In this document: positions 15,831 to 64,000 of the stretch, piece after piece
Numbering within the stretch: the first letter of the stretch is position 1
Layout: every line of letters begins with the position of its first letter
From: an uncultured delta proteobacterium
GTDB taxonomy: Bacteria > Myxococcota_A > Polyangia > Haliangiales > Haliangiaceae
Direction of reading: 5' to 3'
Assembly: GCA_963848295.1 (NCBI GenBank)
Contig: CAWKDB010000010.1
Span: 4,768,001 to 4,832,000, forward strand
DNA: 64,000 nt
Program-made: the position numbers and the translations under genes
Notes under the pieces: generated by a model
What the model saw: the letters and a program-made list of their open reading frames with translations, nothing else
What the model was told of the DNA's origin: nothing
Database searches by the model: none

Positions 15831-15837
15831 CAGTTCG

Positions 15838-15919
15838 TGCGAACGGGGGGACTCGAACCCCCACGATTTTACTCACTAGCACCTCAAGCTAGCGCGTCTA
15901 CCAATTCCGCCACGTTCGC
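15838..15919 (-). tRNA. tRNA-Leu (anticodon GAG)
   Basis: Minus strand GCGAACGTGGCGGAATTGGTAGACGCGCTAGCTT-GAG-GTGCTAGTGAGTAAAATCGTGGGGGTTCGAGTCCCCCCGTTCGCA; long variable arm; CCA not encoded. Confidence 0.97.
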
Positions 15920-16273: not shown

Positions 16274-17335
16274 ATGTCCCGCTCTCTTAAGGGTGCTCTG
16301 ATCGGATTCGGATTCATCGCCGAGAAAGGCCACGTCCCGGCTTACCTCGCCGCGCCCGAGGCATTCGAGATCGTTGCAGTTGCCGAGATCTGCTCCGCGC
16401 GCCGCGCGAAGGCTCGCGAGGTCTTGCCGAAAGCTCGGATCTACCCGGATACCAAAACGCTGCTCTCCGCCGAGGCCAAGAACCTCGACTTCGTGGACGT
16501 CGCGACACCGCCTTGCGACCACGCCGCCATCGCTCATGCGGCGTTCGAGCACGGTCTGCACGTGTTCTGCGAGAAGCCGATCGCGACCAGCGGCGCCGAT
16601 GCAAAGTCGTTGCTCGATCACGCCTCCGCGGTCAAGCGCGTGTTCTTCCCGTCGCACAATTACAAGCACGCGCCGGTGATCAAGGCGATCCGCGGCGTGC
16701 TCGAGTCGGGTGAGCTCGGCGCGATCCATCTGGTCACGCTGGACACGTTCCGCACGACCCACGCCAAGGGAGTCGGCGAGTGGCAGCCGGACTGGCGCCG
16801 TCACCGCACGACGTCGGGCGGCGGCATCGCGATGGACCACGGCAGCCATACGTTCTATCTCGCATTCGATTGGCTCGCCGCGCAGCCCACCGCGATCACC
16901 GCGAAGATGTCGAACCTGTCGGCGTTCGATACCGAAGACAACTTCGCCTGCACGGTCACGTTCCCGACCGGCATCGCGGTCGCTCAGTTGACGTGGAACT
17001 CGGGCTTCCGCAAGGTCATCTACACGATCCACGGCGCGAACGGCGCCATCAAGGTCGAGGACGACGATCTCGAGATTCACCGCAAGCGTCCGGGCGGCAA
17101 GGTCGAGGTCGAGAAGCGCTCGCTGTCGTCGAACTGGATGGACGCCGCGCACGCCGAATGGTTCAAGGCTCTGCAGGTCGAATTCGCGGCGGCGATCCAT
17201 ACCAAGACGTTCGTGGGTCGCGAAGCGCGCGACGCGGCGATGTGCGTGCAGCTGATCGAGACGGCGTACGCCTCGGCCCGCGCCGACGGTCGCCAGCTCG
17301 AGCTCGGCCCGTCGCGCACCGCGAAGGCCGGCTGA
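16274..17335 (+). CDS. Gfo/Idh/MocA family NAD(P)-dependent oxidoreductase
   Basis: LIGFGFIA Rossmann motif, VATPPCDH, HVFCEKP and GGGIAMDHGSH. Confidence 0.93.
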   Translation: MSRSLKGALIGFGFIAEKGHVPAYLAAPEAFEIVAVAEICSARRAKAREVLPKARIYPDTKTLLSAEAKNLDFVDVATPPCDHAAIAHAAFEHGLHVFCEKPIATSGADAKSLLDHASAVKRVFFPSHNYKHAPVIKAIRGVLESGELGAIHLVTLDTFRTTHAKGVGEWQPDWRRHRTTSGGGIAMDHGSHTFYLAFDWLAAQPTAITAKMSNLSAFDTEDNFACTVTFPTGIAVAQLTWNSGFRKVIYTIHGANGAIKVEDDDLEIHRKRPGGKVEVEKRSLSSNWMDAAHAEWFKALQVEFAAAIHTKTFVGREARDAAMCVQLIETAYASARADGRQLELGPSRTAKAG

Positions 17336-17356
17336 AGAAGATCGGGTCGCTGGCCC

Positions 17357-18109
17357 GTGCAGGACATCTACTTCTCGTACTTCATGGGCTCCCTGCTCGT
17401 GACGGTCGTGGTGTTGTACGGGATCCGGCTGGTGTCGCGTGGCGCCGCGCACAGCGACCGGGTCGGGCAGATCGGCGGCACCGCGCTGGTCGGCCAAGGC
17501 GCGATGGAGACGACCTACTGGGTGCTCGATCCGTTCGTGCGCGGGCTCGTGGCGATCGGCGCCACGCCGAACATGGTCACCTGGAGCGCGCTGGTTTTCG
17601 GGCTCGGCGCTGGTGTCGCGGTCGGGTTCGGTTGGTTTGGCCTGTGCTGCGTGCTCGCGACCGCGTCGACGTTCCTCGACATCCTCGACGGACAGGTCGC
17701 GCGGATGACGAAGAAGAGCTCGAATAGCGGCGAGTTGCTCGACGCGGCGATCGATCGCTATACCGAGTTCGCGATGCTCGCCGGCCTGATCGTGTTCCTG
17801 CGCGACTCGGTGCTACTGATGGGCCTCGCGCTGCTCGCGCTGCTCGCGTGCTTCATGGTCAGCTACGCGAGCGCGAAGGCCGAAGCGCTGCACGTCTCGC
17901 CGCCGCGCGGGTTGATGCGCCGCCACGAGCGCGCGACTTATATCATCACCGCCGCCGGGTTCACGCCGCTCGTCGGGCCATGGTTTCATGCGCAGTGGAG
18001 CGCGCTGCCTTGGTACAGTCTGGAGCTGGTCGCGCTCGGGGTGGTCGCGATGGTCGGCAACTTCGCGGCGATCCAGCGCTTCGTCCGAATCGCGCGCGCG
18101 TTGAGGTAA
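17357..18109 (+). CDS. CDP-alcohol phosphatidyltransferase (PgsA/PIP-synthase-like)
   Basis: TPNMVT; signature DILDGQVAR...GELLD...DR; MVSYASAKAE; GLMRRHER. Confidence 0.92.
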   Translation: MQDIYFSYFMGSLLVTVVVLYGIRLVSRGAAHSDRVGQIGGTALVGQGAMETTYWVLDPFVRGLVAIGATPNMVTWSALVFGLGAGVAVGFGWFGLCCVLATASTFLDILDGQVARMTKKSSNSGELLDAAIDRYTEFAMLAGLIVFLRDSVLLMGLALLALLACFMVSYASAKAEALHVSPPRGLMRRHERATYIITAAGFTPLVGPWFHAQWSALPWYSLELVALGVVAMVGNFAAIQRFVRIARALR

Positions 18110-18122
18110 AACCGCGCCTTCC

Positions 18123-19484
18123 ATGCCGCAGCCCGCAAACCAGAACCGCTCGCTCAAGACCGCGATCCCGGGCCCGACCAGCGCCGCGTTGCGCGCGCGA
18201 GAGGACGTTCACATCGCGCCGGGCGCGCAAGGTTACGCGTTGATGGCTGGAGTGGTCGTCGATAGCGCGCAGGGCACGACCGTCACCGACGTCGACGGCA
18301 ACACGTTCCTCGATTTCATCGGCGGCATCGCGGTCGGCGCACTCGGCCACTCGCATCCGACCTGGGTCGACGCGATCCAGAAGCAGGCCGCGCGTGCGGC
18401 GGTCGGTTCGTTGACGAGTGAAGCGCGGGTCGAGCTGTTCGAGCGATTCGCGAAGCACGCGCCGGCGAACGGCGTGCACCGGCTGCAGATGTACTCGGGC
18501 GGCGCCGAGGCGGTCGAGAGCGCGCTGCGCTTGGCGAAGTCGCACACCGGCAAGTACGAGTTCATCAGCTGCTGGGGCGGCTTTCACGGCAAGACGATGG
18601 GCGCGCTCGCGCTGATGGGCTCCACATTCAAGGACAAGCTCGGGCCCATGGTACCGGGCAGCCATCAAGTGCCCTACGCGGATTGCTATCGCTGTCCGCT
18701 CGGCCAGTCGTATCCATCGTGCGGCATCGCGTGCGCGGAGGTCGCGCGCAAGTACGTCAAGGTCGCAACCGCGGGCGCGGTCGCCGGCATGATCGTCGAG
18801 CCGATGCAAGGTACCGCCGGCAACATCGTCCCCCCGAAGGAATTCTTGCCGGCGATGAAGTCGATCGCCGATGAAGCGGGCGCGTTGTTCATCGCCGACG
18901 AGATGATCACCGGCCTCGGCCGCACCGGCAAATGGTGGGGTACGGACCACACCGGCGTGATCCCGCACATCGTGACGATCGGCAAGGCGGTCGGCGGCGG
19001 CTTCCCGCTGTCGGCGCTCGCCACGACCGACGAGATCAGCAAGGCCAAGCCGTGGTCGAACGCATCCGGTTCGTCGTCGAGCTACGGCGGCAATCCGCTC
19101 GCGGCCGCGGCCGGCGCGGCGTCGCTCAGGATCATCGAAGAAGAGCACCTGGTCGACAACTCGCGCGACGTCGGCGCCGCGATGCTGAAGGAGCTCGAGA
19201 CCTGGGTCGATCGCTATCCATTCGTCGGCTGCGCGCGCGGCTCCGGCATGTTCATGGCGCTCGAGCTGGTGAGCGACAAGCAGAGCAAGGCCGAGCTGCC
19301 GCGCAAAGTGACCGAGCGGATCTTCCTGGAGTGCGTCAAGCGCGGCCTGTTGACGATGAGCTACTCCGCGCACTTCCGCATCCAACCGCCGCTGACCACC
19401 GACGAGGCGACCGCGATGAACGGCCTCGCGATCCTGAGAGAAGTGTTCGATCTCGTCGCACGCGAAGGCTGGTGGTCGGCCTAG
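18123..19484 (+). CDS. Class III PLP-dependent aminotransferase
   Basis: DVDGNTFLDF, SGGAEAVE, GFHGKT, IVEPMQG, FIADEMITGLGRTG and TIGKAVGGG motifs. Confidence 0.93.
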   Translation: MPQPANQNRSLKTAIPGPTSAALRAREDVHIAPGAQGYALMAGVVVDSAQGTTVTDVDGNTFLDFIGGIAVGALGHSHPTWVDAIQKQAARAAVGSLTSEARVELFERFAKHAPANGVHRLQMYSGGAEAVESALRLAKSHTGKYEFISCWGGFHGKTMGALALMGSTFKDKLGPMVPGSHQVPYADCYRCPLGQSYPSCGIACAEVARKYVKVATAGAVAGMIVEPMQGTAGNIVPPKEFLPAMKSIADEAGALFIADEMITGLGRTGKWWGTDHTGVIPHIVTIGKAVGGGFPLSALATTDEISKAKPWSNASGSSSSYGGNPLAAAAGAASLRIIEEEHLVDNSRDVGAAMLKELETWVDRYPFVGCARGSGMFMALELVSDKQSKAELPRKVTERIFLECVKRGLLTMSYSAHFRIQPPLTTDEATAMNGLAILREVFDLVAREGWWSA

Positions 19485-19503
19485 CTGCGAGGCCACACCT
19501 TTG

Positions 19504-20535
19504 CTATGTCCGGCGCGCGGCGATCTCGCCAGACGGCGACGCGGTCGCGCGTGGCAGGTCTGCGCGGCGCTGATCGGCGCCGGTCTCGACCGGACACTCG
19601 GCCTTGACGTCGCCTTCGCGGCCCAGGACGAGGCGCATCTCGAGCGCGAGGCCCGCCGCGATCGTCGGGATGACTTGCATCACGTGATAGAGCAGCGCGA
19701 ACGCCAGCGCCGGCTCCTCGGCGATACCGATGATCTTGCAGCCGGCCAGCGCGCCGACCTCGAATGCGCCGACCTGCGCCGGCGTCGACGGCACCATGAT
19801 CGTCACGTTGAGCGTGAACAGCACGAGCAGTGCGGCCGCGATCGGCACGTGGATCCCGACCGCATACATCACGAGCATCACCGCGGCGAGATCGGCGAAC
19901 CACACGAGGAACAGCGGCACTAGTGCCCAGAGCAACCGCTTCGGATCGCGCAGCACGTGCATGCCGGCGATGAACCGGGTGAAGAACGAGCCGGTCCCCG
20001 CAGCCCGGTCGCTGACGCGACCGACCGCCATGTACAGCGCGATGAACAACACGACCGCGATCGCGGCGCACAGCAGCATGCCGATCTCGACCCACCTCGG
20101 GATGCCGGGCAACAGCCACGGCACCGGCGCGACGAGGATCAACATCGTCATCCCATCGAGCAGCTTCTCGGCGACCGCGACTGCCGCGGTGTCCGCGGCC
20201 GGGACGCCATCGCGACGCTTGAGCGACCACACGCGCAACACTTCACCGGCGCGCGCGGGCGTGATCGCCGAGGCCGCGAATGCCGCGACCGTGATCCGGA
20301 ACAGCCGCATCGTCTTCACGATGTGCTTCGGCGCGAGCATGACGTGCCAGCAAGCCGCTTTGCCCCACAAGCATACGAAGTTCAATCCGACCGCGATGGC
20401 GAGCGGCCAGACCTTCGCGTGGCCGAGGTCTTTGCCGAGCTTGTCCCAATCGAGCTTGCGGATGAACCACCACAGGCACGCGCTGATCACCGTGATCGCG
20501 GCAATCCGTAACGTGACAGCGAGTCGGCGGCTCAC
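19504..20535 (-). CDS. Lysylphosphatidylglycerol synthase TM-domain (UPF0104, flippase-like) protein
   Basis: Multiple TM helices; PARAGEVLR, EKLLD and PSTPAQVGAFE motifs; start uncertain (20535 or 20580). Confidence 0.85.
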   Translation of the reverse strand: MSRRLAVTLRIAAITVISACLWWFIRKLDWDKLGKDLGHAKVWPLAIAVGLNFVCLWGKAACWHVMLAPKHIVKTMRLFRITVAAFAASAITPARAGEVLRVWSLKRRDGVPAADTAAVAVAEKLLDGMTMLILVAPVPWLLPGIPRWVEIGMLLCAAIAVVLFIALYMAVGRVSDRAAGTGSFFTRFIAGMHVLRDPKRLLWALVPLFLVWFADLAAVMLVMYAVGIHVPIAAALLVLFTLNVTIMVPSTPAQVGAFEVGALAGCKIIGIAEEPALAFALLYHVMQVIPTIAAGLALEMRLVLGREGDVKAECPVETGADQRRADLPRATASPSGEIAARRT

Positions 20536-20597
20536 GCCTGGCACTCCATAAAGAATGACGTAGTCGCGTCTGATCGGCATGCGTTCGGGGCAGCCGC

Positions 20598-21632
20598 GTG
20601 ATAAGCGAGCGGTCGAACGTGACCTTGACTCCCGCGTCCGCCTCGGCCGCTCCGCGCAGTGCGTTGTGGCGCACGCTCGCGTGGATCGGGCCGGACTTCG
20701 GGCTGGTCCTCGCGTTCACCGCGGTGCTCGTGGTGCTCGTCGCCGCGTACGGCGGTTCGTACAAGTGGCGAGAAGGACCGATCGTGATCTCTGCCGGCAT
20801 CGCCGCGATCCTGGTCGCGGCCCGGTTCGTGTGGCGCGCGCCTTCGATCGTGCTCGGCATCGGCGATGCGCGCCGCGAGTTCCTGCGCGCCGCTCAGAAG
20901 ATCCTGCGCGACTGGGGGCCGCTGATCCTCATCATGTGGCTGTTCCAGAGCCTCGAGACGTATACCGGCGTGATCCGCAAGACGTCGATCGACACCTACC
21001 TGTACCGGGCGGACCTCTGGCTGTTCGGCGTCGAGCCGACCGTGTGGCTGTCGAAGCACGCCGTACCGCTGCTCACCGACTACATGTCGCTCGCGTACGG
21101 CTTGTACTTCATCACGCCGATGGTGCTCGCCACGATGCTGTCGATCCGCGGCCGGCGCGAAGACTTTCGCGAGATGTCGACCGCGGTCGTGCTCCAGCTC
21201 GGCATCGGCTTCTTGTTGTTCCTGATCTTCCCCGCCGGCCCACCGCGCTACTACGAGCCGCTGCTGCACGGCGGCCCGGGTGCCTTCGAGCCGCAGCACC
21301 TGCACTCGTACTTCGGCTTGTTCGAGCTCCAGCAAGGGGCGTTCGACAGCGCTGATCCCGCACGCACGAGGTCGGCCTTCCCTTCGCTGCATTGCAGCCT
21401 CGCGCTGCTCACGCTGATCTACTCGTACCGGTTCGGCGACGCCGTGTTTCCGCGCTTCCCGCGCCTGTGGTTCCGCATCGTCGTGCCCGCGGTGATCTCG
21501 CTGTGGATCTCGGTCGTGTACTTGCGCCACCACTGGGTGGTCGACATCTTCGCGGGCCTCGCCCTCGGCACGATCGCGAACTTGCTCGCACCCGTGCTGC
21601 GCCGCCGCTGGCCACGCGCCGTGCTGGAGTGA
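20598..21632 (+). CDS. PAP2-superfamily inositol phosphorylceramide synthase-like (AUR1/IPT1-like) membrane protein
   Basis: D.WLFG..P, FPAGPPRY, AFPSLH and YLRHHWVVD catalytic motifs. Confidence 0.8.
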   Translation: MISERSNVTLTPASASAAPRSALWRTLAWIGPDFGLVLAFTAVLVVLVAAYGGSYKWREGPIVISAGIAAILVAARFVWRAPSIVLGIGDARREFLRAAQKILRDWGPLILIMWLFQSLETYTGVIRKTSIDTYLYRADLWLFGVEPTVWLSKHAVPLLTDYMSLAYGLYFITPMVLATMLSIRGRREDFREMSTAVVLQLGIGFLLFLIFPAGPPRYYEPLLHGGPGAFEPQHLHSYFGLFELQQGAFDSADPARTRSAFPSLHCSLALLTLIYSYRFGDAVFPRFPRLWFRIVVPAVISLWISVVYLRHHWVVDIFAGLALGTIANLLAPVLRRRWPRAVLE

Positions 21633-21633
21633 G

Positions 21634-22824
21634 CTAACGATCACGCGCGCCTCCGTGCGCAGCGATCGCGGCAAAGTATTCAGCGCGGACCTGGCCGGCG
21701 AGGATGTCCCAGTCGTACGCCTCCGCGGCATGGCGGTTGAGCGCGCCGCGGTGATGGCGAGCGGCGGGACCCAGAGCAATGACATCGGTAAGCGCTTGCT
21801 CGAGGGCGCGCGCATCACCTGGCGGTACGAGCGAGCTGCCCTCGGGGATCGCGACCTGGCGATATCCGTCGATGTCGGAACACACGATCGGCTTGGCCGA
21901 CGCCATCGCCTCGAGCAACACGATGCCGAACGATTCCTGGCCGGTCGACGGCGCGACGAACACGTCGCACTCGCGGTACAGCTCGGTCAGGCGGTCGAAG
22001 CCGACGGCGCCGTGATAGTTGAGCCCGGGAAGCGCCGGCGGAGGTGCGGCCTGGCCGAGCTCGCCGATCACGTCGAGCGTCACCGGCAAGCCGCGCTCGA
22101 CCAGCCCGCGATAGGCATCGAACAGATAAGGTGCGCCCTTGCGGCGATCGCCGAGTCGGCCCACGAACAACAGCTTGACCGGCGCGTCGAACGCATGGCC
22201 GTTCGTCGTCGGCGGCGTGAAGATGTCGGTCGGTACGCCGTTCGGGATGATCGACATCGAGCGGTTCCACACGTAGCTCGCGTAACGCGCGGCCGGCTCG
22301 CTGACCGCGATCGCGCGCTGGAACCACGGAAACATCGTCGCGCTCCACGCTTTGCGCGCCCAGCCGAGCGCTCTGCTCTCCTCCTCGGAGAACGCGTGGA
22401 ACGTCGCGACGTGCGGCACGTGCGTCGTCATCCACACCGACCAATACGACAGCGACGGCTGGAGCGGCTCGTGGATATGGATGACGTCGAAGTCGTGCTC
22501 GCGAAAGAACCGCGCGATCGCGAAAGGCGACACGAAGATGCCGAGCATGTTGTCCGAGCCGTTCGCGGGGACGTTGATGATCCCGCCGAACGTCTTGGTG
22601 TCCGGATCCTTGATCGGCGCGGATGACGGCCCGACGACCGTGACCTCATCGCCGTTGCGGCGCAGCGCGGCCGCGAGCTGTTGCGCGTGGTGCTTCACGC
22701 CGCCGCCCGGCGACGCCATATCGTACGTCACCATCATGCAGACCCGCAGCTTGGCTTCCGCCGAGTCCGTGACGATCGGTGGCGGGGGCAGGGGTCTGCC
22801 CTGCGGGTCGATACGGAGAACCAT
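21634..22824 (-). CDS. GT4 glycosyltransferase, PimA (phosphatidylinositol mannosyltransferase)-like
   Basis: YDMASPGGGV, VPANGS, FDVIHIHEP..PSLS, VATFH, IPNGV and PSTGQESFGIVLLEAMA closely parallel recalled PimA motifs. Confidence 0.85.
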   Translation of the reverse strand: MVLRIDPQGRPLPPPPIVTDSAEAKLRVCMMVTYDMASPGGGVKHHAQQLAAALRRNGDEVTVVGPSSAPIKDPDTKTFGGIINVPANGSDNMLGIFVSPFAIARFFREHDFDVIHIHEPLQPSLSYWSVWMTTHVPHVATFHAFSEEESRALGWARKAWSATMFPWFQRAIAVSEPAARYASYVWNRSMSIIPNGVPTDIFTPPTTNGHAFDAPVKLLFVGRLGDRRKGAPYLFDAYRGLVERGLPVTLDVIGELGQAAPPPALPGLNYHGAVGFDRLTELYRECDVFVAPSTGQESFGIVLLEAMASAKPIVCSDIDGYRQVAIPEGSSLVPPGDARALEQALTDVIALGPAARHHRGALNRHAAEAYDWDILAGQVRAEYFAAIAAHGGARDR

Positions 22825-22925
22825 AGGCTAGGTGTCGCAACCTAGCGGATCGGTGGCCAGGGTCAAGGGGTCTCCAATCCCGGCAAATCCTGGACAACCA
22901 GGCACTTGGAAGGCATGGTCGGCCG

Positions 22926-25427
22926 GTGATCCCAGCCGCTGCGTTCGCCCATCGGTACGCCCGATGGATCGAGCGGAACCGGTGGTGGATCGTGCTCGGC
23001 TCGATCGCGTTCACCGTGGTCGCCGGGCTCGCGGCGGCGCGGCTTCAAGTGCGCGCCGACTTCTCGTACTTGCTACCGCAGTCGGTGCGCTCGGTGAAAG
23101 ATCTGCGCGCGATCGAACGGCGCGCGCGGGTGATCGGCAGCGCCGAGGTGGCGGTCGAGGATCTCGACGCGTCGGCGGTCTACATCGCGAGCGGCTTCGG
23201 CGCGACGCTCGTACCGCGTCACACCGCGGAGCGCCGGCGCGCGGCGCTGATGATGCGCGACAAGATCGCAGGGCTGTCGAAAGATCTGGTGTCCGGCGTC
23301 ACGTTCGATCACTCGATCGAGCACAAGTACGCTTGGGATCACCGCTGGCTGTTCGCGAAGCTCGGCGATCTGACGCGGGCCCGCGACGCGCTCGCCGACG
23401 AGATCCGCCGCGCGAAGCTCGACGCGAACCCGGCGTTCGTCGATCTGGCCCCGCCGACGAGTCAGCCAGACGCGGCGAGCGAGCTCCGCGGCAAGTTGCG
23501 CGAGGCCGACGCCGACAAGGACGATCCGGGCGAGTACGTCGGCAAGGACCAGACGCTGCAGGCGATGATCGTCCACACCGCGTTCTCGGGCGACATCGAC
23601 AAGGACAACGAGCTGCTCGCCGAGCTCGAGCGAGTCCGCGGCGAAGTGCTCGCTCGGGTTCACGGCGTCAACATCGGGATCGCCGGCGGCGTCGCGGTCG
23701 AGATCGCCGAGCACGACTCGATCTTGAACGGCATGGTGCTCGCGACCGCGGTCACCGTCACGCTCGTGCTCGCCGGCATGCTGTGGTTCTTCCGCTCGGT
23801 GCTCGCGGTCGGCGCGCTGTCGTGGGGGTTGTCGGTCGGCACCGCCGCGACCTTCGCGTTCACGTACCTCGCGCTCGGCTACTTGAACCTCGCGACCGCG
23901 TTCCTGTCGTCGATCGTGATCGGCAACGGCATCAACGTCGGGATCCTCGTGACCGCACGTTACCTCGAGGAGCTGCGCGCCGGCCGCGATGGCGCCGATG
24001 CCCTCGCCGGCGCGCTCGCGCATACCGCCGCCGGCACGCTCGCGGCCGCGCTCACGGCGGCCGTCGCGTACGCCTCGCTGATCATCACGGTGTTCCGCGG
24101 CTTCCGCCACTTCGGGATCATCGGCGGCGTCGGCATCTTGCTGTGCTGGATCGCGGCCTACACCGTGCTCCCGGCGGCGCTCTCGATCGCCCGCCGACTC
24201 GGAATGAAGCCCGGCAAACCGTCGCCGCTCGGCGGCTGGCTCGCGAGGCTCCTGCCGAGGAGCCTCGGGGCGGTCGCGATCGTGACGATCGGGCTCGTCG
24301 TGCTCGCGGGCGCGATCACCGCGCGCTACCTCGCCGAGGATCCGTTCGAGTCGAACTTCAAGAACCTGCGCTCGCACAGCCCCACGATCACCGCCGAGAA
24401 GGTGTGGATGCACTCGATCGATCGGGCGTTCGGCGAGGGCCTCGACTCGGCGTTCGTGATCGCGGTCGATCGGCGCGATGAAGTCGCGCCGCTGGTCGCG
24501 GAGCTGAAACGGACGGATCTGAAGCGCGCGACGCACGACAAGTTGTTCGCCCAGCTCTACACGATGGACGACGTGCTTCCGTCCGATCAGCCGAAGAAGC
24601 TCGCGGTGCTCGCCGAGATTCGCGAGTTGCTCTCGAACAAGGATCTCGATCTGCTCGACCCGAAGGATCGCGACGAGGCGCTACGTCTGCGTCCGCCCGC
24701 CGACCTCCACACGCTGACCGACGCCGACGTGCCGGAGGCGATCGCCGCCCCGTTCACCGAGAACGACAACTCGCGCGGCAAGCTGATCCTCGCGACCGCC
24801 GGGTCGGGCTACGAGATCTGGGACGCGCACGATGCGGTCCGGTTTTCGGACAACGTTCGCGCGTTGCACTTGCCGGCTGACGTTCATTTCGGCGGCGCAT
24901 CGTTCATCTTTGCAGATGTGATCGACGCGGTGCTCACCGATGGTCCTCGCGCCACGCTGGCCTCGCTCGCCGGCGCGATCCTCGTCGTGTTGCTCGTCGT
25001 CGGGCGCAACCGCCACGGGCTCGTCACGATCATCTGCGGGCTATCCGGGACGATCTTGATGCTGGGTACGTGCGCGTTACTCGGCCTCAAGATCAACTTC
25101 TTGGATTTCGTCGCGCTGCCGATCACGATCGGTATCGGCATCGAGTACTCGGTGAACATCGCGACCCGCGAGCGCCAAGAAGGGCCGGGCAAAGGGCGCG
25201 CCGCGCTCGCGACCACCGGTGGCGCCGTGTTCATCTGCTCCTATACGACGATCGTCGGCTGGGGCTCGCTGCTGTTGTCGCAGAACAAGGGGATCAACTC
25301 GTTCGGCCTCGCCGCGATGATCGGCGAGATCACGTGCCTCGGCGTCGCGCTCGTGCTCGCGCCCTCTCTGCTGTGGTTCACCGCGCGCAGGTTGCTCGCG
25401 CCGCGCGTCGATGAATCGTTGACGTGA
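22926..25427 (+). CDS. MMPL/RND family lipid transporter
   Basis: Two repeats of TM1 + periplasmic loop + 5 TM helices; IGNGINVG and IGIGIEYSV motifs; 833 aa. Confidence 0.88.
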   Translation: MIPAAAFAHRYARWIERNRWWIVLGSIAFTVVAGLAAARLQVRADFSYLLPQSVRSVKDLRAIERRARVIGSAEVAVEDLDASAVYIASGFGATLVPRHTAERRRAALMMRDKIAGLSKDLVSGVTFDHSIEHKYAWDHRWLFAKLGDLTRARDALADEIRRAKLDANPAFVDLAPPTSQPDAASELRGKLREADADKDDPGEYVGKDQTLQAMIVHTAFSGDIDKDNELLAELERVRGEVLARVHGVNIGIAGGVAVEIAEHDSILNGMVLATAVTVTLVLAGMLWFFRSVLAVGALSWGLSVGTAATFAFTYLALGYLNLATAFLSSIVIGNGINVGILVTARYLEELRAGRDGADALAGALAHTAAGTLAAALTAAVAYASLIITVFRGFRHFGIIGGVGILLCWIAAYTVLPAALSIARRLGMKPGKPSPLGGWLARLLPRSLGAVAIVTIGLVVLAGAITARYLAEDPFESNFKNLRSHSPTITAEKVWMHSIDRAFGEGLDSAFVIAVDRRDEVAPLVAELKRTDLKRATHDKLFAQLYTMDDVLPSDQPKKLAVLAEIRELLSNKDLDLLDPKDRDEALRLRPPADLHTLTDADVPEAIAAPFTENDNSRGKLILATAGSGYEIWDAHDAVRFSDNVRALHLPADVHFGGASFIFADVIDAVLTDGPRATLASLAGAILVVLLVVGRNRHGLVTIICGLSGTILMLGTCALLGLKINFLDFVALPITIGIGIEYSVNIATRERQEGPGKGRAALATTGGAVFICSYTTIVGWGSLLLSQNKGINSFGLAAMIGEITCLGVALVLAPSLLWFTARRLLAPRVDESLT

Positions 25428-30634: not shown

Positions 30635-32011
30635 CTATCGGCGGTGGCCGCCGCCGCCGCCACTGTGGCCGCCGCCGCCTCCGCCCCACGAGTGACCGCC
30701 GCCGCCGAACGAGTGACTGCTGCCGCCGCTCGAGTGCGACGGTGAGCTGTACGAGTGCATCGGAGCGCTGTAGTGCGTAGGCGCGTTGTAATGCGTAGGC
30801 GCGTTGTAGCGCTGCATCGGCGCGCGATACGTCTGCGCCGGGGCGCGATAGGTCTGACGATACGTCTGCGGCTGACGATACGTCTGCGGCTGGCGATACG
30901 TCTGCGGCTGACGATACGTCTGGACCGGCTGACGATAGGTCTGGACCGGCTGGCGATACGTCTGGACCGGCTGGCGAAAGCCCTGCTGGCGGCCGCCTTG
31001 GACCTGGCGCGGAATCACCCCGCCGCTCAGCGCCCCGTGGTTGTTGAAGCCGCTGTTGACGCGGCCGCCTGCCGCGAAGCGTGCGTGCATCAGCGAACCG
31101 GGTCGCACGGGATTCGTCCCGCGCACCGGCAGCGTGCCCACGGGTCGCGTCACGCGTAGCCCTTCGGCAGCGTCGCCGAACTCGTGCGCGCGAATGTGAC
31201 CGGCGCCGAGGTCGTGCTCGCCCGCGAATCGCCAGTGCGAGTCGTGCTCGGGCAGCACGTGGTGGCCATCGGTCGAGATCGGCGCTCGGGGCCTCCAGCC
31301 GACGACGCCACCGCCGTGCCGCCAGTCGACCCAGGCCGGGCCCCAATGGTAGCCGCGCTGCCAACCCCAACGATTGCCGAACCAACCCCAGCGACCGTAG
31401 TGGAACGGCAGCCAGCCCCAGTTGTAGTCGCAGTTGAACGTCCAGCCCCACGTGCTCCACACCCACGAACCGCACGATTCGTAAGGCGTGAAGCCGGTGC
31501 CGACCACCGAATCGTCCGGATACCAAACCTGGCCGTAGCCGTCTTCGTTGTCCCATTGGCCGTATCCGTCGAGCGTCGCGTCGATCTCGGCGTCGGTCAC
31601 CGGGTTCATCGCGCCTTGATCGTCTCCGCCCTGCGCCTGCGCGTTCGGGTCGTTCGGATCGCCGGACGCCCCGGCGTTCGGGTCGACGGCGTTCGGGTCG
31701 TAGGGATCGCCATTCGGGTCGCTCTCGCCCTGCACATTTCCCGGGTCCTGGGCCTGACCGTCACCCTGCGGGACATAACCCTGTGTCGGATCGTATCCAG
31801 GCGGCGGGCCGTTCTGCGGGTCGTAGACCCCGGGCGCGCCCTGCTGCGGATAGCCCGGCTGCGCCGGCGGCGCCTGGTCGTAGCCGCCAGGAGGTCCTGC
31901 AACCTCGACGGGTTGCGGCATCGTCCCCTGCGCGTACGTCGAGCCCGATGGGTAGCAGGCCGCGGCGAACGTCAGTGCGCTGAGGGTGATGGCTGCGCGG
32001 ATCGAGCTCAT
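30635..32011 (-). CDS. DUF6600-like Trp-rich lipoprotein with low-complexity repeats
   Basis: FAAA-C lipobox; L..YGQW, WGWLPFHYGRW, WGPAWVDW and VGWRP motifs; repetitive tail. Confidence 0.8.
   Translation of the reverse strand: MSSIRAAITLSALTFAAACYPSGSTYAQGTMPQPVEVAGPPGGYDQAPPAQPGYPQQGAPGVYDPQNGPPPGYDPTQGYVPQGDGQAQDPGNVQGESDPNGDPYDPNAVDPNAGASGDPNDPNAQAQGGDDQGAMNPVTDAEIDATLDGYGQWDNEDGYGQVWYPDDSVVGTGFTPYESCGSWVWSTWGWTFNCDYNWGWLPFHYGRWGWFGNRWGWQRGYHWGPAWVDWRHGGGVVGWRPRAPISTDGHHVLPEHDSHWRFAGEHDLGAGHIRAHEFGDAAEGLRVTRPVGTLPVRGTNPVRPGSLMHARFAAGGRVNSGFNNHGALSGGVIPRQVQGGRQQGFRQPVQTYRQPVQTYRQPVQTYRQPQTYRQPQTYRQPQTYRQTYRAPAQTYRAPMQRYNAPTHYNAPTHYSAPMHSYSSPSHSSGGSSHSFGGGGHSWGGGGGGHSGGGGGHRR
30760..30976 (-). 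repeat. Coding tandem repeats (RQPVQTY x3, RQPQTY x3, NAPTHY x2)
   Basis: 21-bp and 18-bp imperfect units visible in both DNA and protein. Confidence 0.9.
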
Positions 32012-32024
32012 GGCGCCATTAGTG

Positions 32025-32040
32025 TGCACCGATCGTGCCC
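32025..32040 (-). promoter_or_regulatory. Putative sigma54 promoter for the DUF6600-like gene
   Basis: Minus strand reads GGGCACGATCGGTGCA (GG-N10-GC), ending 13 nt before ATG 32011. Confidence 0.55.
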
Positions 32041-32230
32041 GTTGGAGGGGTATAGCGACCTTCATCATCACTTAAGACTCCGAGACTCCCCGGGTTTGGC
32101 CCCGGGAAGATCGCGCCAGGCCACGGCGGTTTTGCAGCCCCGCAGGGTGGCGTTGCAACTTGACAGTGCCGCCGCTGCCGAATTAACAGAACACGAGCGT
32201 TTTTGAGCCCCTAGTGGGCCGGGACAGCGA

Positions 32231-51794: not shown

Positions 51795-54106
51795 CAGTCC
51801 TGCTCCACCGGATCTTTGTTCTTGCTGTCGTTTTTCTCGGCGTTGTCGCGCTGTCGGCGCGCATCCTCGTCGTTCGCGCGCTGGCCGGCGCCGCTCTTCG
51901 ATTGGTCCTGCTTATCGCCTTGCGCTTGTTGCTGCTTGTCCTGCTTCTTCTTGTTGTTCTTCGACGGCGGCTGCAGCAGCTTGAGCGCGGACTGGAGATG
52001 CTCGATCGCCTTGGCCTCGGCGTCGACCGCCGGCTTGAGGCTGACCGATTGGTTCGTCGCGGCTTGCGCTTTGCCGAGCCCGGTCTTCGCGTCGGCCATG
52101 CTGTTTTGCGCGAGCTGGACTTCATCGGCGGCGGCCGCGAGCGTCTTCGGATCCGGGCCTTGCTGTGCGTGCGGGCCGGGTGGTTGCGCGCCTGCTTTCT
52201 TGCCCGCGGCGTCGGCCTGCTTCGCGAGCACGTCGTGGATCGCCTTCGCCATCTGCGCGTGCTCGTCTTCGCTCGTGACCAGGCCGGGCAGCTTCGGCGC
52301 GCGCGTGAAGTCATCATCGCCGTTCGCGGTCGTCGTCTGATCGCGCGTCTCGCCCTGCTTGCGGATCAAGTCCTGGAGGTGCTCGATCAAGTTGAAGAAC
52401 AGCTCGCGCAGCTCGTCGAGCTTGGCCTCGGCGGTCTTCGCCGGCGCGAGCGGATCGGTGTTCTTCGCGATCGCGGTCTGGAGCTCGGCGATCGCCTTCT
52501 CGGCGTCGGCGCGCAGCGGCTCGGCATCGGCGAGCTGTTGGCGGAGGCCGTCGAACTGCTTCTTGATGTCGTCCGGCGACGGTGACGGCGGCGGTGGGGC
52601 GCCCGAGCCTTGGGCAGCTTGCGCCGGTGCGACGGCTTTCTGCTCCGCCTGCTTCTGCTCGGCGTCGATCTTGGCGGCCTGTTCGGCGAGCAGCGTCTTG
52701 ATCTTCGGTAGCCGCGCGAGGTTGCGCGCGAGGTCCTGCTTCGCCTGCTCCGCTCGCTCCTTCGGCTCGAGCTGCGTGGCCCCTGGCGTGACGAGGGCGG
52801 TCAGGTCCTTTTGCGTGTTCGCAGCGAGCTCGATCGTCTGCTTGAGGTCGGCGAACTCTTCGACTGCCTCGCCGATCGCGATGACCGAGTCGCGCTCGGT
52901 CTCGCCGGCGTCATCGAGCTTGCCGTCGGCGAGTTGATGCTGGGCGCGCTCCATCGCGGCGCTGGCCTCGGTGACGAACGGCGCGGCTCGGGTGTAGCGC
53001 TCGAGCTCCTTCGCTTGGTCCTCGGACATCTTCGGCGGCTCGCCATTAGCGCCCGGCTTGTCGGCGTGGTCGGTGATCGCGGACAGCCGCGCGCGGACCT
53101 CGTCGATGCGATCGCGCAGGCCGGTCTGGCGCTCCGCGAGCGCAGCGGGTTGCATCCAGACCGGGATCACCGGCTTGCGATCGCTGTTCGCGAGCAGCTT
53201 CGGCGCGGTTGCCTCGGCGACCGCGCGGGTCTCGCGGATCAAGTCGACCTCTTCGCTGCCCACCGCTTGCAAGATCGGGATCGGCTCGAGCAGCTGCTCT
53301 CTCGCTCGCTTGAGCGCGATCATCGCCGCTTCGCTGCGAGCGAGCCCATCGTCGGCGGCGAGATCCTGCAGCTTGCGGCGCGCCTCGGCGATCCGCGAGC
53401 GCCCCTGGGTCAGGTAGACGTCGAGGTTCTTGAGCTGGACGAGTCGGACCTTCTCTTTGTCGTCGCGCTTGTCCTCGGGCTTCTTGCCGATCTGGTCGAC
53501 CTCGTCGTCCGCGAGATCACCGATCACGCCCGCTTCGGCGCCGATGCCGCGCTCCGCGTCGGCGAGCGCGACGAGCGCCTTCTGCTGCGCGGCAGGATCG
53601 GCGCCGCCGCTCTGCTTGACTTGGACCCACGCGGAGCGCGCTCCGTCGACCACGTCGCGCTGCTCCTCGATCACCGCGTCGAGTTGGCCCTCGAGCGTAT
53701 GCTGATCGCGTGCGAGCTCGTCCTTCATCGCCTGCGCCCGCGTCCGAGCGATCGCGAGGTTCGCGATCGTATCTTGGTCGTCCTTGCGCTGGTGCGACGC
53801 GTCGGTGAACCACGACACCGCTTGCTCTTCGAGCTCGAGCGCTGCGGTCAGGTCGGCATCCTCGCCGGCTCGCGTCTTCGCGGCGTGAGCTGCGTACGTG
53901 CACCCGAGATCGTAGGCCGCGCGAAATCGAAGCTCGGGATCGACGCCGGCATTGCTCCTCGAGTCGAGGAATGCCTTTTCGGCACCTTCGAAGTCGCCTT
54001 TCGCGAGCAGCTCCGCTCCGTGGTTGTACGTGTCGCGCGCGGCGCGATGCTCCGACGGGGTGCAGCTCGTCGCGAACCACAGCGCGGCGATCAGCGCGCG
54101 CCTCAC
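51791..54106 (-). CDS. BatC-like TPR/coiled-coil lipoprotein
   Basis: GTG overlapping the batB stop; WFATS-C lipobox; TPR; long coiled coils; Q/K-rich tail ending PVEQDW. Confidence 0.75.
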   Translation of the reverse strand: MRRALIAALWFATSCTPSEHRAARDTYNHGAELLAKGDFEGAEKAFLDSRSNAGVDPELRFRAAYDLGCTYAAHAAKTRAGEDADLTAALELEEQAVSWFTDASHQRKDDQDTIANLAIARTRAQAMKDELARDQHTLEGQLDAVIEEQRDVVDGARSAWVQVKQSGGADPAAQQKALVALADAERGIGAEAGVIGDLADDEVDQIGKKPEDKRDDKEKVRLVQLKNLDVYLTQGRSRIAEARRKLQDLAADDGLARSEAAMIALKRAREQLLEPIPILQAVGSEEVDLIRETRAVAEATAPKLLANSDRKPVIPVWMQPAALAERQTGLRDRIDEVRARLSAITDHADKPGANGEPPKMSEDQAKELERYTRAAPFVTEASAAMERAQHQLADGKLDDAGETERDSVIAIGEAVEEFADLKQTIELAANTQKDLTALVTPGATQLEPKERAEQAKQDLARNLARLPKIKTLLAEQAAKIDAEQKQAEQKAVAPAQAAQGSGAPPPPSPSPDDIKKQFDGLRQQLADAEPLRADAEKAIAELQTAIAKNTDPLAPAKTAEAKLDELRELFFNLIEHLQDLIRKQGETRDQTTTANGDDDFTRAPKLPGLVTSEDEHAQMAKAIHDVLAKQADAAGKKAGAQPPGPHAQQGPDPKTLAAAADEVQLAQNSMADAKTGLGKAQAATNQSVSLKPAVDAEAKAIEHLQSALKLLQPPSKNNKKKQDKQQQAQGDKQDQSKSGAGQRANDEDARRQRDNAEKNDSKNKDPVEQDW

Positions 54107-61220: not shown

Positions 61221-64000
61221 TCAGTCGAGCGGCCAGGGCAAGGTGCGCAGATCCGGCGCGATCGCGGCGAAGCCGGCGCGCAGGCGCGCGGCGGTAGGCC
61301 GTTTGCGCGGATCGCGCGACACCGCGGCGCGCAGCAGCTGCGCGAGCGAGCCGAGGTGAGGCTTGCGCTCGAGCCGCGCGAGGACGTCGGCGCCTGGCTG
61401 AGCCGCGAAGTGTTGATCGAGGACTTGTTGCAGGGTATCGCCGCGGAGCAGCACGCGGTTCGTGAGTACCTCGAAGGCGACGCACGCGGCGGAATAGACG
61501 TCGGCGGCGAACGGCTCGTGCTGGTCGCCGTCCTCGCTCCACACCTCGGCGGCACCGTAGTGAATGCTGCCGCAGCCGGCGCGTATCCGGCGACCGGCGA
61601 GCCCGAAGTCGACGAGCACCGCGTCGCCGTTGCCGGCGCGCAGCACGACGTTCGCGGGTTTGACGTCGAGGTGCGCGATCTGGACGTGGTGCATCGCATC
61701 GAGGCCGGCGAGCAAGCCGTCGACGATCGCGAGCGCGCGCGGCATCTCGAGCTGGTCCGCTTCGAGCGTGCGCTCGAGATTGGTACCGCGCACGAACTCC
61801 ATGACGAGCACCGGCTTGGGTCGGGCGCTCGCATCGAACGTGATGAATCGCGCGAGGTTGCCGTGACGCGGGAGCGCGAGCAACGCCGAGGCCTCTTCGC
61901 GGAACAGCCGCTCGAACTCTTGCTCGGACAAGCTGCGCGCGGCTTCGCCCGCGTAGTCCGGAACCTTCAGCGCGACCTGCTCGCGATCGGCCCGCGCCCG
62001 ATCATCGGCGCGCACCGCGAGCAAGACCGATCCGCCGGCGCCGCGCCCGATCGGCCGTACAACGTAGAAGCCGCCGAGCAAGCGCGACAATGGAACCCAG
62101 CCCGGCAGCATCGCGTCCGCGGCCGCGGTCGGCGCTGGATCGGCGTCGCCGAGGGGCCGGCGCGCGAGCGCGACCAAGACGCGCTCGGTCGCCGCGGCGA
62201 GCGCCGGAGGCAACGCCATGCGCGCGGCATCGACGGTCGCGGCGACGTGCTCGTCGAGCGAGTCATCTCCACGCGCCGCCGACTGCGCGAGGTCGCGCGC
62301 ATGGGCTTCGAGCTCGTCGCTGCGATCGTCGGCCGCGAGTCCGAGGCGCTGGCGCGCGCCGAACACGCGGCGGGCGAGGGCGCCGAGCTCGAGCGCGACG
62401 CTCTCGACGACACCGGCCGCATCGCGCCGGCTGCTCGCGCAGATCCGAGCCAGCAGGTTGCCGAGTCGGGCGAGCGAGAGTCGGACCGATTCGACTCTCG
62501 GCGATTGCTCGGGCGGGAGAGCGTCGGCGAGCTCGCCGAGGCGTTCGACGACGGCGGACACCGCATCGCCATCGTCGGGATCGGCGGCGGCCCACGTCGC
62601 CTTCTCGAGGGCGGCGTGCGCGGCGAACACCGCCTCGACCTCGGGCACCATCGACGCCTCGCGGACGATCGCGAAGTCCTCGTCGGCAAAGCTCGTCGTC
62701 CACGCGAGCAACAGGTCGGTGACCTCGGCGTGACCGTCGCGCAGCAGGGCATCGCCGGCGCGAGTCATCGCCGCCCACACCGCGCGGCGTAGCGGCGAGC
62801 GATCTAGCTGCGCGCGCGCCATCAGTTGGCGAACCGCCGCGAGTCGAGCTCCGACATCGGCTTCGCCACTCGCTCGCATGCCGTCGAGCAGGCGGACCAG
62901 AGCGCGCAACCGCGCGATGCGCAGCCCGCCGTGGAGCACCGGTCCGGTCTCGGCTCGCGCTTCGCGGGCGAGCAACGCGGCCTCGATCGCCGCGAGGCCG
63001 CGCGCGAACTGAGCGCGCGCCGGATCGCCGTCGGGTGCGAGCGCGAGCACCGCCGGCAGGGCGTTGTCGGCGAGCAAGCCGCGATCGAGCTCCCGCAACA
63101 ACCGCACCGAGTGGCGGCGATCGATCGGGTCGTCGTCGTTCGCGCGCTCGAGCCAATCGGCCGCGGCGACGACCTCTTCGACCGCGGCGCGAGCGTCGTG
63201 CAACGCGCGCGGAATATCGCCGGCATCGAGCGCCGCTCGCGCGGCAGCGATCGGCAGCGCGAGGCCTTCGGGCCGCGCGCCATCGCCGAGCTCGGCGTCG
63301 AGCGCATGGAGCAGCGCCCAGCGGCCGTCGTCATCGGTGGCCGCGACCGCGAGCTTGGCGCGCGTCCAGTCGTGCGCGGCCGCCGCAGCACGTGGCAACA
63401 GCGCCGCCGCCTCTTCGCGGCGCAGCTCGGCGAGCGCTTCGGCCGCATCGAGCGGCGCTCGCGAGACGAGCTCGGTCGCGAGGTCATCCGCGGCATCTGG
63501 CGACGTGATCGCCAAGCCGGCGAGGCCGAGGATCGCACCGCGCGCGACGCCGGGCTCGGTCGCGGCGCGTTCGACGAGGATCGGCGTCCACCGCGCCGCC
63601 GCGCCGCCGTGCTCGAGGGCCGCCGCCGCCGACGCGGAGGCGCGGCGCAGCTCGGTCGGGTTCGCGTTCGGCCGGAGCTCGCGATCGATGTCATCGGCGA
63701 GCTCGGAGTCGACGTGCGCGAGCAGGCCGCGCGCGATGCCGGCGAACCGCCAGATCAGCTGCTCGCGATCGCCGAGCAGCCGCGTCAACGCCGCGCGCAC
63801 CCCCGCGCGCGCGAGCACCGCGACGCCGCCGCGATCGCCGCCGAGCTGGCGCCGCAGCGCCTCGCGCGCACCATGTGCCAAGATCCGCGCGGCGAGCCGC
63901 CGACCCGGCAACGATCCGGTCGCCGGCACTTCGACCCAACTGTGCGCGAGCGACGGCTGAGCGAGCAAGCCGATCGCGAGCTCGCCGGTCGCGCCGGGGG
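61221..64000 (-). CDS. Large helical-repeat protein with C-terminal Ser/Thr kinase domain, 5'-partial
   Basis: Frame open to the window edge; GRGAGG, VALK, HLDVKPAN, DFG, YGAAE and DVY motifs. Confidence 0.88.
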   Translation of the reverse strand, partial: PGATGELAIGLLAQPSLAHSWVEVPATGSLPGRRLAARILAHGAREALRRQLGGDRGGVAVLARAGVRAALTRLLGDREQLIWRFAGIARGLLAHVDSELADDIDRELRPNANPTELRRASASAAAALEHGGAAARWTPILVERAATEPGVARGAILGLAGLAITSPDAADDLATELVSRAPLDAAEALAELRREEAAALLPRAAAAAHDWTRAKLAVAATDDDGRWALLHALDAELGDGARPEGLALPIAAARAALDAGDIPRALHDARAAVEEVVAAADWLERANDDDPIDRRHSVRLLRELDRGLLADNALPAVLALAPDGDPARAQFARGLAAIEAALLAREARAETGPVLHGGLRIARLRALVRLLDGMRASGEADVGARLAAVRQLMARAQLDRSPLRRAVWAAMTRAGDALLRDGHAEVTDLLLAWTTSFADEDFAIVREASMVPEVEAVFAAHAALEKATWAAADPDDGDAVSAVVERLGELADALPPEQSPRVESVRLSLARLGNLLARICASSRRDAAGVVESVALELGALARRVFGARQRLGLAADDRSDELEAHARDLAQSAARGDDSLDEHVAATVDAARMALPPALAAATERVLVALARRPLGDADPAPTAAADAMLPGWVPLSRLLGGFYVVRPIGRGAGGSVLLAVRADDRARADREQVALKVPDYAGEAARSLSEQEFERLFREEASALLALPRHGNLARFITFDASARPKPVLVMEFVRGTNLERTLEADQLEMPRALAIVDGLLAGLDAMHHVQIAHLDVKPANVVLRAGNGDAVLVDFGLAGRRIRAGCGSIHYGAAEVWSEDGDQHEPFAADVYSAACVAFEVLTNRVLLRGDTLQQVLDQHFAAQPGADVLARLERKPHLGSLAQLLRAAVSRDPRKRPTAARLRAGFAAIAPDLRTLPWPLD

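Follow-up and report, generated by a model that had tools for sequence, protein, structure and literature searches.

Proposed product of the gene block

A block of seven lipid-related genes (positions 16274 to 25427) is described here from a 64,000-nucleotide stretch of DNA, referred to as the window, of an uncultured delta proteobacterium of the Haliangiaceae. In our estimation the chances are about even that the block makes a glycosylated phosphatidyl-inosamine glycerolipid, i.e. a lipid resembling phosphatidylinositol mannosides (PIM), with an amino group and one sugar on the ring, that is exported by the MMPL transporter. An earlier note, made from the sequence alone, had suggested a pathway for an inositol-type lipid with an oxidation and amination pair added to it; the conserved run of three core genes and neighbours similar to BT_1522-1526 of Bacteroides support this part of it. 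What the locus adds is a coupled glycosyltransferase, the loss of pgpA and a weak link to ceramide. The source genome (G000; assembly of 7.8 Mb, 85% complete) was compared with other genomes, numbered in the G series, and with loci numbered in the L series. The features of the block are as follows.

16274..17335, + strand: Gfo/Idh/MocA NAD-type dehydrogenase (Pfam PF01408/PF22725/PF02894)
17357..18109, + strand: CDP-alcohol phosphatidyltransferase resembling phosphatidylinositol phosphate (PIP) synthase (NCBIfam profile ranking; best solved relatives are PIP synthases)
18123..19484, + strand: class III pyridoxal phosphate (PLP) aminotransferase of its own subfamily (PF00202, 5e-94)
19504..20580, - strand: LPG_synthase_TM/UPF0104 flippase-like protein of a BT_1521-like family (PF03706, 9e-45; TIGR00374 above cut-off; start codon uncertain)
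20598..21632, + strand: AUR1-superfamily PAP2_3 enzyme (PF14378, 1e-20; H-H-D triad intact; start codon uncertain)
21634..22824, - strand: PimA-like GT4 glycosyltransferase (PimA 1e-41, next solved structure 6e-12)
22926..25427, + strand: MMPL/HpnN-like RND lipid exporter (PF03176; nearest solved relative HpnN, 8e-20)
15837..15919, - strand: tRNA-Leu(GAG), bordering the block upstream

All seven reading frames named in the earlier note are present at these positions and fall into the families it gave them, and the first three genes share one orientation with gaps of 21 and 13 nt, as it had claimed. The strands of the last four genes alternate (flippase-like -, PAP2_3 +, GT4 -, MMPL +), so that the block comprises at least four transcription units and is not one operon. 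Only 17 nt separate the listed start of the flippase-like gene from that of the PAP2 gene, and at least one of the two therefore probably begins at a codon inside its listed frame. The GC content is level across the seven genes, and a scan for sigma-70 promoters and terminators gave nothing exceeding shuffled sequences.

The proposed pathway would begin with inositol phosphate supplied by ino1, a gene observed elsewhere in the genome. The dehydrogenase is predicted to oxidise one ring hydroxyl, converting myo-inositol (or its phosphate) to inosose (or its phosphate), which the class III aminotransferase is predicted to aminate; from the gene neighbours and context we infer both inositol as the substrate and its amination. 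The PIP-synthase-like enzyme, as its family would have it, would then couple the aminated head group, its presumed acceptor, to CDP-diacylglycerol. In most distant lineages PgpA would take off the phosphate; here another enzyme would do so, possibly PAP2_3, itself a predicted lipid phosphatase or phosphotransferase. GT4, whose linkage to the other genes is observed, is predicted to attach a hexose or N-acetylhexosamine to the lipid at its cyclitol ring from the cytoplasmic side, both acceptor and donor being presumed. Finally, the UPF0104 protein would flip the lipid, and the MMPL protein would move it outward into an envelope apparently devoid of lipid A.

Conservation of the core run

The dehydrogenase and transferase genes lie directly upstream of the aminotransferase gene in 48 of the 51 loci having at least 2.7 kb of upstream DNA (46 found by the ORF caller, L026 and L046 by tblastn), among 66 loci with an aminotransferase orthologue from which the unrelated match L067 was excluded. 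The three exceptions are L066, which is rearranged, and L007 and L008, with neither dehydrogenase nor transferase nearby. Six genes, all except PAP2, occur within one locus in 7/66 cases, many loci being short contigs. The three core genes form a conserved run, beyond what chance would give; the complete seven-gene block is not a fixed unit.

The neighbours of the core point to inositol. A PgpA gene follows the aminotransferase in 25 loci, and ino1 is found directly upstream of the dehydrogenase in L028, L071 and L072. Among seven distant genomes ino1 is inside the run in four (L071-L074), and the run of L075 holds a set of nucleotidyltransferase, HAD and CDP-alcohol transferase genes; GtrA, a BT_1522-like PAP2_3, PgpA and MMPL are also present in these runs in varying order. 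In one of the seven a radical SAM gene is in the run and the dehydrogenase was not found. By family assignment, the run of the distant relatives is the gene content of BT_1522-1526 with the dehydrogenase, the aminotransferase and the exporter added. In G000 two ino1 copies elsewhere in the genome make MIPS available. The aminotransferase is patchy, being present in 10 of 301 genomes of the phylum sample; its nearest relatives (83-95% identity) are mostly labelled Kofleriaceae, and the next tier (66-79%) mostly Polyangia/Myxococcales, which makes it very likely that G000 belongs to a myxobacterium of the Kofleriaceae.

Genes for methylthioadenosine (MTA) phosphorylase, apt, mtnA, a class II aldolase and an unassigned radical SAM protein lie near the core in 13-17 Kofleriaceae loci (L002-L021 downstream; L084), together with GtrA and MMPL. 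They were dropped as pathway members as mtnA was not found in G000. A radical SAM-MMPL pair is present on contig C4 of G000.

CDP-alcohol phosphatidyltransferase

The best models for the transferase are archaetidylinositol-phosphate synthase (8e-32), BT_1523 (7e-29) and PIP synthase (1e-27), all below cut-off, with PssA at 4e-5. The enzyme groups with PIP synthases and not with PssA or cardiolipin synthase. The motif DxxDGxxAR...GxxxDxxxD and the inositol-phosphate arginines are present; equivalents of R94, S132, Y133, R155 and R195 are retained, and Ser replaces K135. According to two papers on PIP synthase (PMC6506517, PMC4634129), R94, S132, R155 and R195 bind the phosphate of inositol phosphate, K135 may contact the ring, and the K135A variant has only partly lowered activity. 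Ser or Thr occupies this position in 62 of 63 in-run copies (60 by pattern; L030 and L035 by eye), the exception being L076, where the dehydrogenase is missing; in G000 the housekeeping paralogue retains Arg. This loss of positive charge suggests a site suited to an amine-bearing ring and lends modest support to the proposed acceptor. G000 has ten CDP-alcohol phosphatidyltransferase genes, an unusually large number, without pgpA.

Dehydrogenase and aminotransferase

The dehydrogenase is below every NCBIfam cut-off (IolG model: 61 bits, cut-off 355), and its structure was modelled with pLDDT 92.6. The aminotransferase is likewise below all 25 listed NCBIfam cut-offs; its motifs FHGK and EPxQGT are invariant in the 66 orthologues. 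A precedent for ketone-then-amine chemistry is given by Hyg17 and Hyg8 (the latter we take to be a class III aminotransferase) of hygromycin A biosynthesis, likened here by role; the product there is an antibiotic and not a lipid. The branch Hyg18/Hyg25/Hyg17/Hyg8 was proposed to lead through MIPS, a Gfo dehydrogenase and an aminotransferase to inosamine; of Hyg17 and Hyg8, Hyg17 alone was assayed (PMC10949010).

It is also conceivable, but very improbable, that the PLP enzyme brings about no net transamination and that the two enzymes together carry out an epimerisation or elimination, so that the product would be a scyllo-, chiro- or deoxy-inositol lipid without nitrogen. Amino-acid racemases and epimerases are among the top solved relatives of the aminotransferase, a phospho-lyase is in the list, and the usual GabT residues are changed. 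However, racemases and lyases that use PLP depend on an amine substrate, the ketone-making partner fits transamination, and the PLP lysine motif is kept.

A plasmid search for characterised relatives gave aminotransferase matches of at best 39% identity. The best dehydrogenase match (34%), a Gfo enzyme, is in an operon of Streptomyces sp. NBC_01601 plasmid NZ_CP109315.1 (L090:5850-14688), which also comprises a class III aminotransferase, a methyltransferase and nucleotidyltransferases, among them an aminoglycoside nucleotidyltransferase, and has aminoglycoside-modifying-type genes on its flanks. The operon looks like an unassigned aminocyclitol cluster; as an orthologous system it was rejected, its aminotransferase being only 25% identical.

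Linkage of the glycosyltransferase to the core

PimA is the only close solved GT4 relative of the glycosyltransferase. The dehydrogenase, the aminotransferase and GT4 are found in identical sets of genomes, 18 of 36 from the same genus, often on separate contigs; the 18 core-negative ones, most of which have ino1, gave no GT4 match (core-negative G010 is counted in the 36-genome denominators). One inherited block as the cause of this match was rejected by the rpoB DNA tree, where 4 changes are needed, at least 3 of them forced by well-supported branches, and a single clade is rejected (approximately unbiased test, p 0.0005). This tree covers 18 genus genomes and an outgroup; G022 and G032, fragments with long branches, were excluded, and G010, G023, G033 and 14 genus genomes without an rpoB match are left out. 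The rpoB protein tree gave no resolved branching. In L066, L091 and L092 the GT4 gene is inside the run, directly before the transferase gene and after that of the dehydrogenase. The proposal that a PimA-like glycosyltransferase belongs with the inositol-type pathway is supported by these observations: the core and GT4 constitute a co-inherited pathway.

The GT4 proteins form two supported clades, one with the window protein (clade A) and one whose genes follow a UDP-GlcNAc 2-epimerase gene in 10/10 sampled members, mostly with an SGNH hydrolase. The epimerase neighbour suggests UDP-ManNAc as the donor of the sister clade. The window GT4 keeps the catalytic and sugar-binding equivalents of PimA, namely H118, R196, K202 and E274-x7-E282. 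The position of PimA Asp253, which reads guanine according to the residue roles given in PMC9883506, is occupied by Phe276; the 17 clade-A rows compared all have Phe, Leu or Arg there. Mannose, one of the sugars considered in the earlier note, is therefore no more than a candidate. A ManC-like gene of G000 is below cut-off, and WecB was not found in this genome. The automatic database name of the protein, phosphatidylinositol (PI) mannosyltransferase, only restates the similarity.

L096, L097, L098 and L101 carry an SGNH-WecB-GT4-MMPL module followed by a GT-C/ArnT-like membrane protein (labelled by eye); in L101 GT4 is fused to a GT-C/ArnT-like domain (897 aa).

The strongest competitor of the proposed pathway, which we nevertheless consider rather improbable, is that of two products or another order of steps. 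The core would make phosphatidyl-inosamine while GT4 glycosylates plain PI derived from the housekeeping PIP synthase; alternatively, the dehydrogenase-aminotransferase pair would modify the assembled lipid, either at the ring or at the sugar attached to it, in the manner of GenD2 and KanD2 with aminoglycosides. GT4 paralogues and a window-type PAP2 also adjoin a canonical PIP synthase (L099, L016), and the fold neighbours of the dehydrogenase include GenD2 and KanD2. The absence of detected GT4 from the core-negative genomes mentioned above speaks against glycosylation of plain PI, and the core occurs outside the genus without this GT4, which makes the sugar added by GT4 an unlikely place for the amination. 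Moreover, a dedicated and altered transferase travels with the pair.

PAP2_3 enzyme and the question of ceramide

A mannosyl or hexosyl (amino)inositol phosphoceramide had been put forward as the main product, with PAP2_3 moving the head group from glycerolipid to ceramide, as do AUR1 and BT_1522. Some features of the enzyme itself agree with this. AUR1 is its best relative both by sequence and by fold (E 8e-5, TM 0.49), the LPT fold and the H-H-D triad are present, the motifs are of AUR1 type and the Ser-Arg motif of phosphatases is missing. BT_1522-like genes are inside the core run of L052 and L070-L072, and G000 has a polyketide synthase (PKS) fused to a domain like serine palmitoyltransferase (SPT). 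Other observations speak against it. The window-type PAP2_3 is accessory: among the relatives, 5 of the 18 with the core carry it and 0 of the 18 without the core, and 8/18 core-positive relatives have no PAP2_3 match of any type. The protein is 22-28% identical to the BT_1522-like type, has extra arginines beside the motifs and reaches only 2e-11 (44 bits, cut-off 480) with the model of PI-ceramide synthase (BT_1522/PI-DHC), versus 2e-52 for the other PAP2_3 gene of G000, located beside hopanoid genes.

Of the two supply genes named by the earlier note, ino1 is in the genome in the two copies mentioned, whereas for SPT the only candidate in G000, beyond Kbl/BioF-type genes, is the SPT-like end domain of the PKS. 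This PKS-SPT domain is found in 2/36 relatives and in none of the five PAP2_3 carriers; no recognisable SPT was found in these carriers (0/5), their SPT-family matches being Kbl, BioF or Kbl-like, with one unassigned. Phosphoceramide as the main product is thus not supported and we regard it as unlikely. A ceramide product is possible in G000, but it does not account for the conservation of the gene set.

The PKS with the SPT-like end lies in one run, G000:C11:371959-393400 (L081 and upstream), with genes for an inositol-monophosphatase-like protein, a reductase, a FAAL-like protein, a CMAS-like methyltransferase, an acyl carrier protein, diiron enzymes, an acyltransferase, GH3, the second ino1, a DegT aminotransferase, a UPF0104 protein and an aldehyde dehydrogenase (some names given by eye). 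At G000:C10:704000-715500 (L109) squalene synthase-like, shc, hpnA/G-like and hpnH genes adjoin the BT_1522-like PAP2_3 and an MMPL. The DNA just upstream (C10:699453-702047) encodes a class III aminotransferase along with two CDP-alcohol transferases.

The flippase-like protein and the loss of pgpA

The pgpA gene was not found in G000. It is present in 12/18 core-negative genus genomes (11/17 without G010) versus 2/18 core-positive ones, and in 0/16 genomes, G000 included, that carry the window GT4 clade. In 10 of 12 regions compared pgpA adjoins the housekeeping PIP synthase; at the equivalent site G000 has a 176-bp gap, containing no N, in its place. It is possible that PAP2_3 is a phosphatase that replaces PgpA in 6/16 of these genomes. 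For the UPF0104 gene, DNA matches also occur in core-negative G022, G023, G032 and G036, so that it is less specific to the core.

Exporter and cell envelope

The MMPL gene is present in 27 of the 39 loci having at least 7 kb of downstream DNA, and the window MMPL clade is sister to MMPLs adjoining the dehydrogenase and is tied to head-group modules, which supports the proposed membership of the exporter in the pathway. The protein is below the HpnN cut-offs (190 vs 752 bits). Its first helix motif has Asn in nearly all of the family at a position where the usual residue is Asp. Export of the lipid to the outer membrane would be consistent with this family.

With HpnN as the nearest solved relative, and with shc, hpnH and hpnA/G-like genes in G000, it might be supposed that the head group is passed to a hopanoid, or that it is another amino-polyol phosphate (serinol- or aminopentitol-like) and not inosamine; in core-negative relatives the neighbours of related MMPLs are a class V aminotransferase, an RpiB-like isomerase, glycerol kinase and other CDP-alcohol transferases. 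We hold this to be quite unlikely, for ino1, PgpA, GtrA and BT_1522-like neighbours, the PIP-synthase placement and the PimA-like GT4 all point to a cyclitol. The hopanoid genes of G000 are elsewhere, with another MMPL, and among the genes of the core loci none was recognised as a hopanoid gene.

The core-negative loci L113, L114 and L115 have a class V aminotransferase, similar to 2-aminoethylphosphonate (AEP) transaminase, and CDP-alcohol transferases adjoining the related MMPL, and the module of L113/L114 adds the RpiB-like isomerase, glycerol kinase and ino1. Possibly, this module provides another amino head group swapped for that of the core.

No lpxC was found in G000, in 36 genus genomes and in 9 other genomes of the order (46/46), while it was found in 9/15 other genomes of the class and in 4 controls; lpxK was not found in G000. 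A report by Keck in 2011 is said to describe Sorangium lacking lipopolysaccharide, which raises the question of what fills the envelope. A wider picture may be drawn tentatively, and we consider it less probable than the pathway itself. In Kofleriaceae, uncultured myxobacteria that are abundant and in which a lipid A pathway went undetected, the outer surface would consist partly of a family of amino-inositol glycolipids, the Gram-negative counterpart of PIM and of glycosylphosphatidylinositol (GPI). The core would make phosphatidyl-inosamine, two GT4 clades would add different sugars to it, one of them ManNAc, a GT-C-like partner would extend the glycan outside, dedicated MMPLs would deliver the lipids, and the window clade would have swapped PgpA for an unrecognised phosphatase step.

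If the proposed pathway is true, the locus encodes an amino-inositol head group of a bacterial phospholipid and, outside Actinobacteria, a PIM-like glycolipid; the open-access literature searched gave no instance of either. It would also be a concrete candidate for the envelope filler in a lineage where lpxC went unfound in every genome of the order covered.

Evidence weighing against the proposed pathway

Several observations weigh against the glycosylated phosphatidyl-inosamine. No enzyme of the block is close to a characterised one. The fold neighbours of the dehydrogenase are glucose-fructose, levoglucosan, inositol-like and aminoglycoside dehydrogenases at 18-24% identity with no winner, and the fold search found no inositol-specific clade for it. 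Gfo enzymes are paired with class III aminotransferases in 1,236 cases versus 15,139 with DegT. The ino1 gene is outside the 64-kb window and is also present in core-negative genomes (31/36 genus genomes have it). The change at K135 is weak evidence, since the K135A variant is only partially impaired, and stand-alone transferase copies with the same Ser/Thr signature exist in two core-positive genomes. A canonical PIP synthase is also in the genome, so that GT4 could act on plain PI.

The distribution data have their own weaknesses. The genus assemblies are patchy, with rpoB recovered in 22/36, and related genomes are not independent. Outside the genus the core occurs without a window-type GT4 in G052-G054 and 5 more genomes (best match 28-30% identity), which makes glycosylation a lineage add-on. 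Window-type PAP2 is present in only the 6 of 16 pgpA-less genomes of the GT4 clade mentioned above, and no phosphatase has been assigned. Finally, lpxC is present in 3/10 other core-positive genomes and is missing from core-negative relatives too; for this reason the lipid as a specific substitute for lipid A was rejected.

Comparison with known systems

The closest gene content is that of Bacteroides thetaiotaomicron BT_1521-BT_1526. Knock-outs of BT_1522-1526, as reported in PMC9246714 and PMC8791184, define MIPS, PIP synthase, PIP phosphatase and PI-ceramide synthase. The window shares with this cluster the PIP-synthase-like transferase, the AUR1-family gene and the LPG-synthase-like neighbour, and the runs of its relatives add ino1, PgpA and GtrA. 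In contrast to Bacteroides, the block has the dehydrogenase, the class III aminotransferase, the PimA-like GT4 and MMPL and lacks ino1, PgpA and GtrA; its transferase and PAP2 are far below the cut-offs of the BT_1523 and BT_1522 models.

With the mycobacterial PI/PIM pathway (PgsA1 PIP synthase and PimA; PDB 6h53, 2gej/4n9w) the window shares the phosphate site of PIP synthase and, in GT4, the equivalents of H118, R196, K202, the E274-E282 motif and Y9. It differs in the replacements of Asp253 by Phe and of K135 by Ser, in a block without the acyltransferase PatA, in the Gram-negative host and in a sister GT4 clade tied to UDP-GlcNAc 2-epimerase. The window pathway works like the Bacteroides PI cluster combined with PimA, but departs from each of the two in a feature compared.

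The resemblance to fungal inositol phosphorylceramide (IPC) and mannosylated IPC (MIPC) synthesis is confined to the fold and the H-H-D triad of PAP2_3, with 23% identity in the structural alignment to Aur1; no ceramide supply tracks with the window gene, and GT4 is presumably unrelated to the fungal MIPC synthase family. The triad of AUR1 is described in PMC13133130. As for the HpnN/MmpL exporters, the window MMPL belongs to the same family and differs in its score and in the Asn of the first helix motif.

Other features of the window

The open reading frame at 30635-32071 (- strand) ends in tandem short repeats rich in Gln and Pro, typical of a secreted low-complexity protein. The GC content is 0.75 in the last 2 kb of the window (62001-64000), and the AT skew is -0.36 at 52001-54000.

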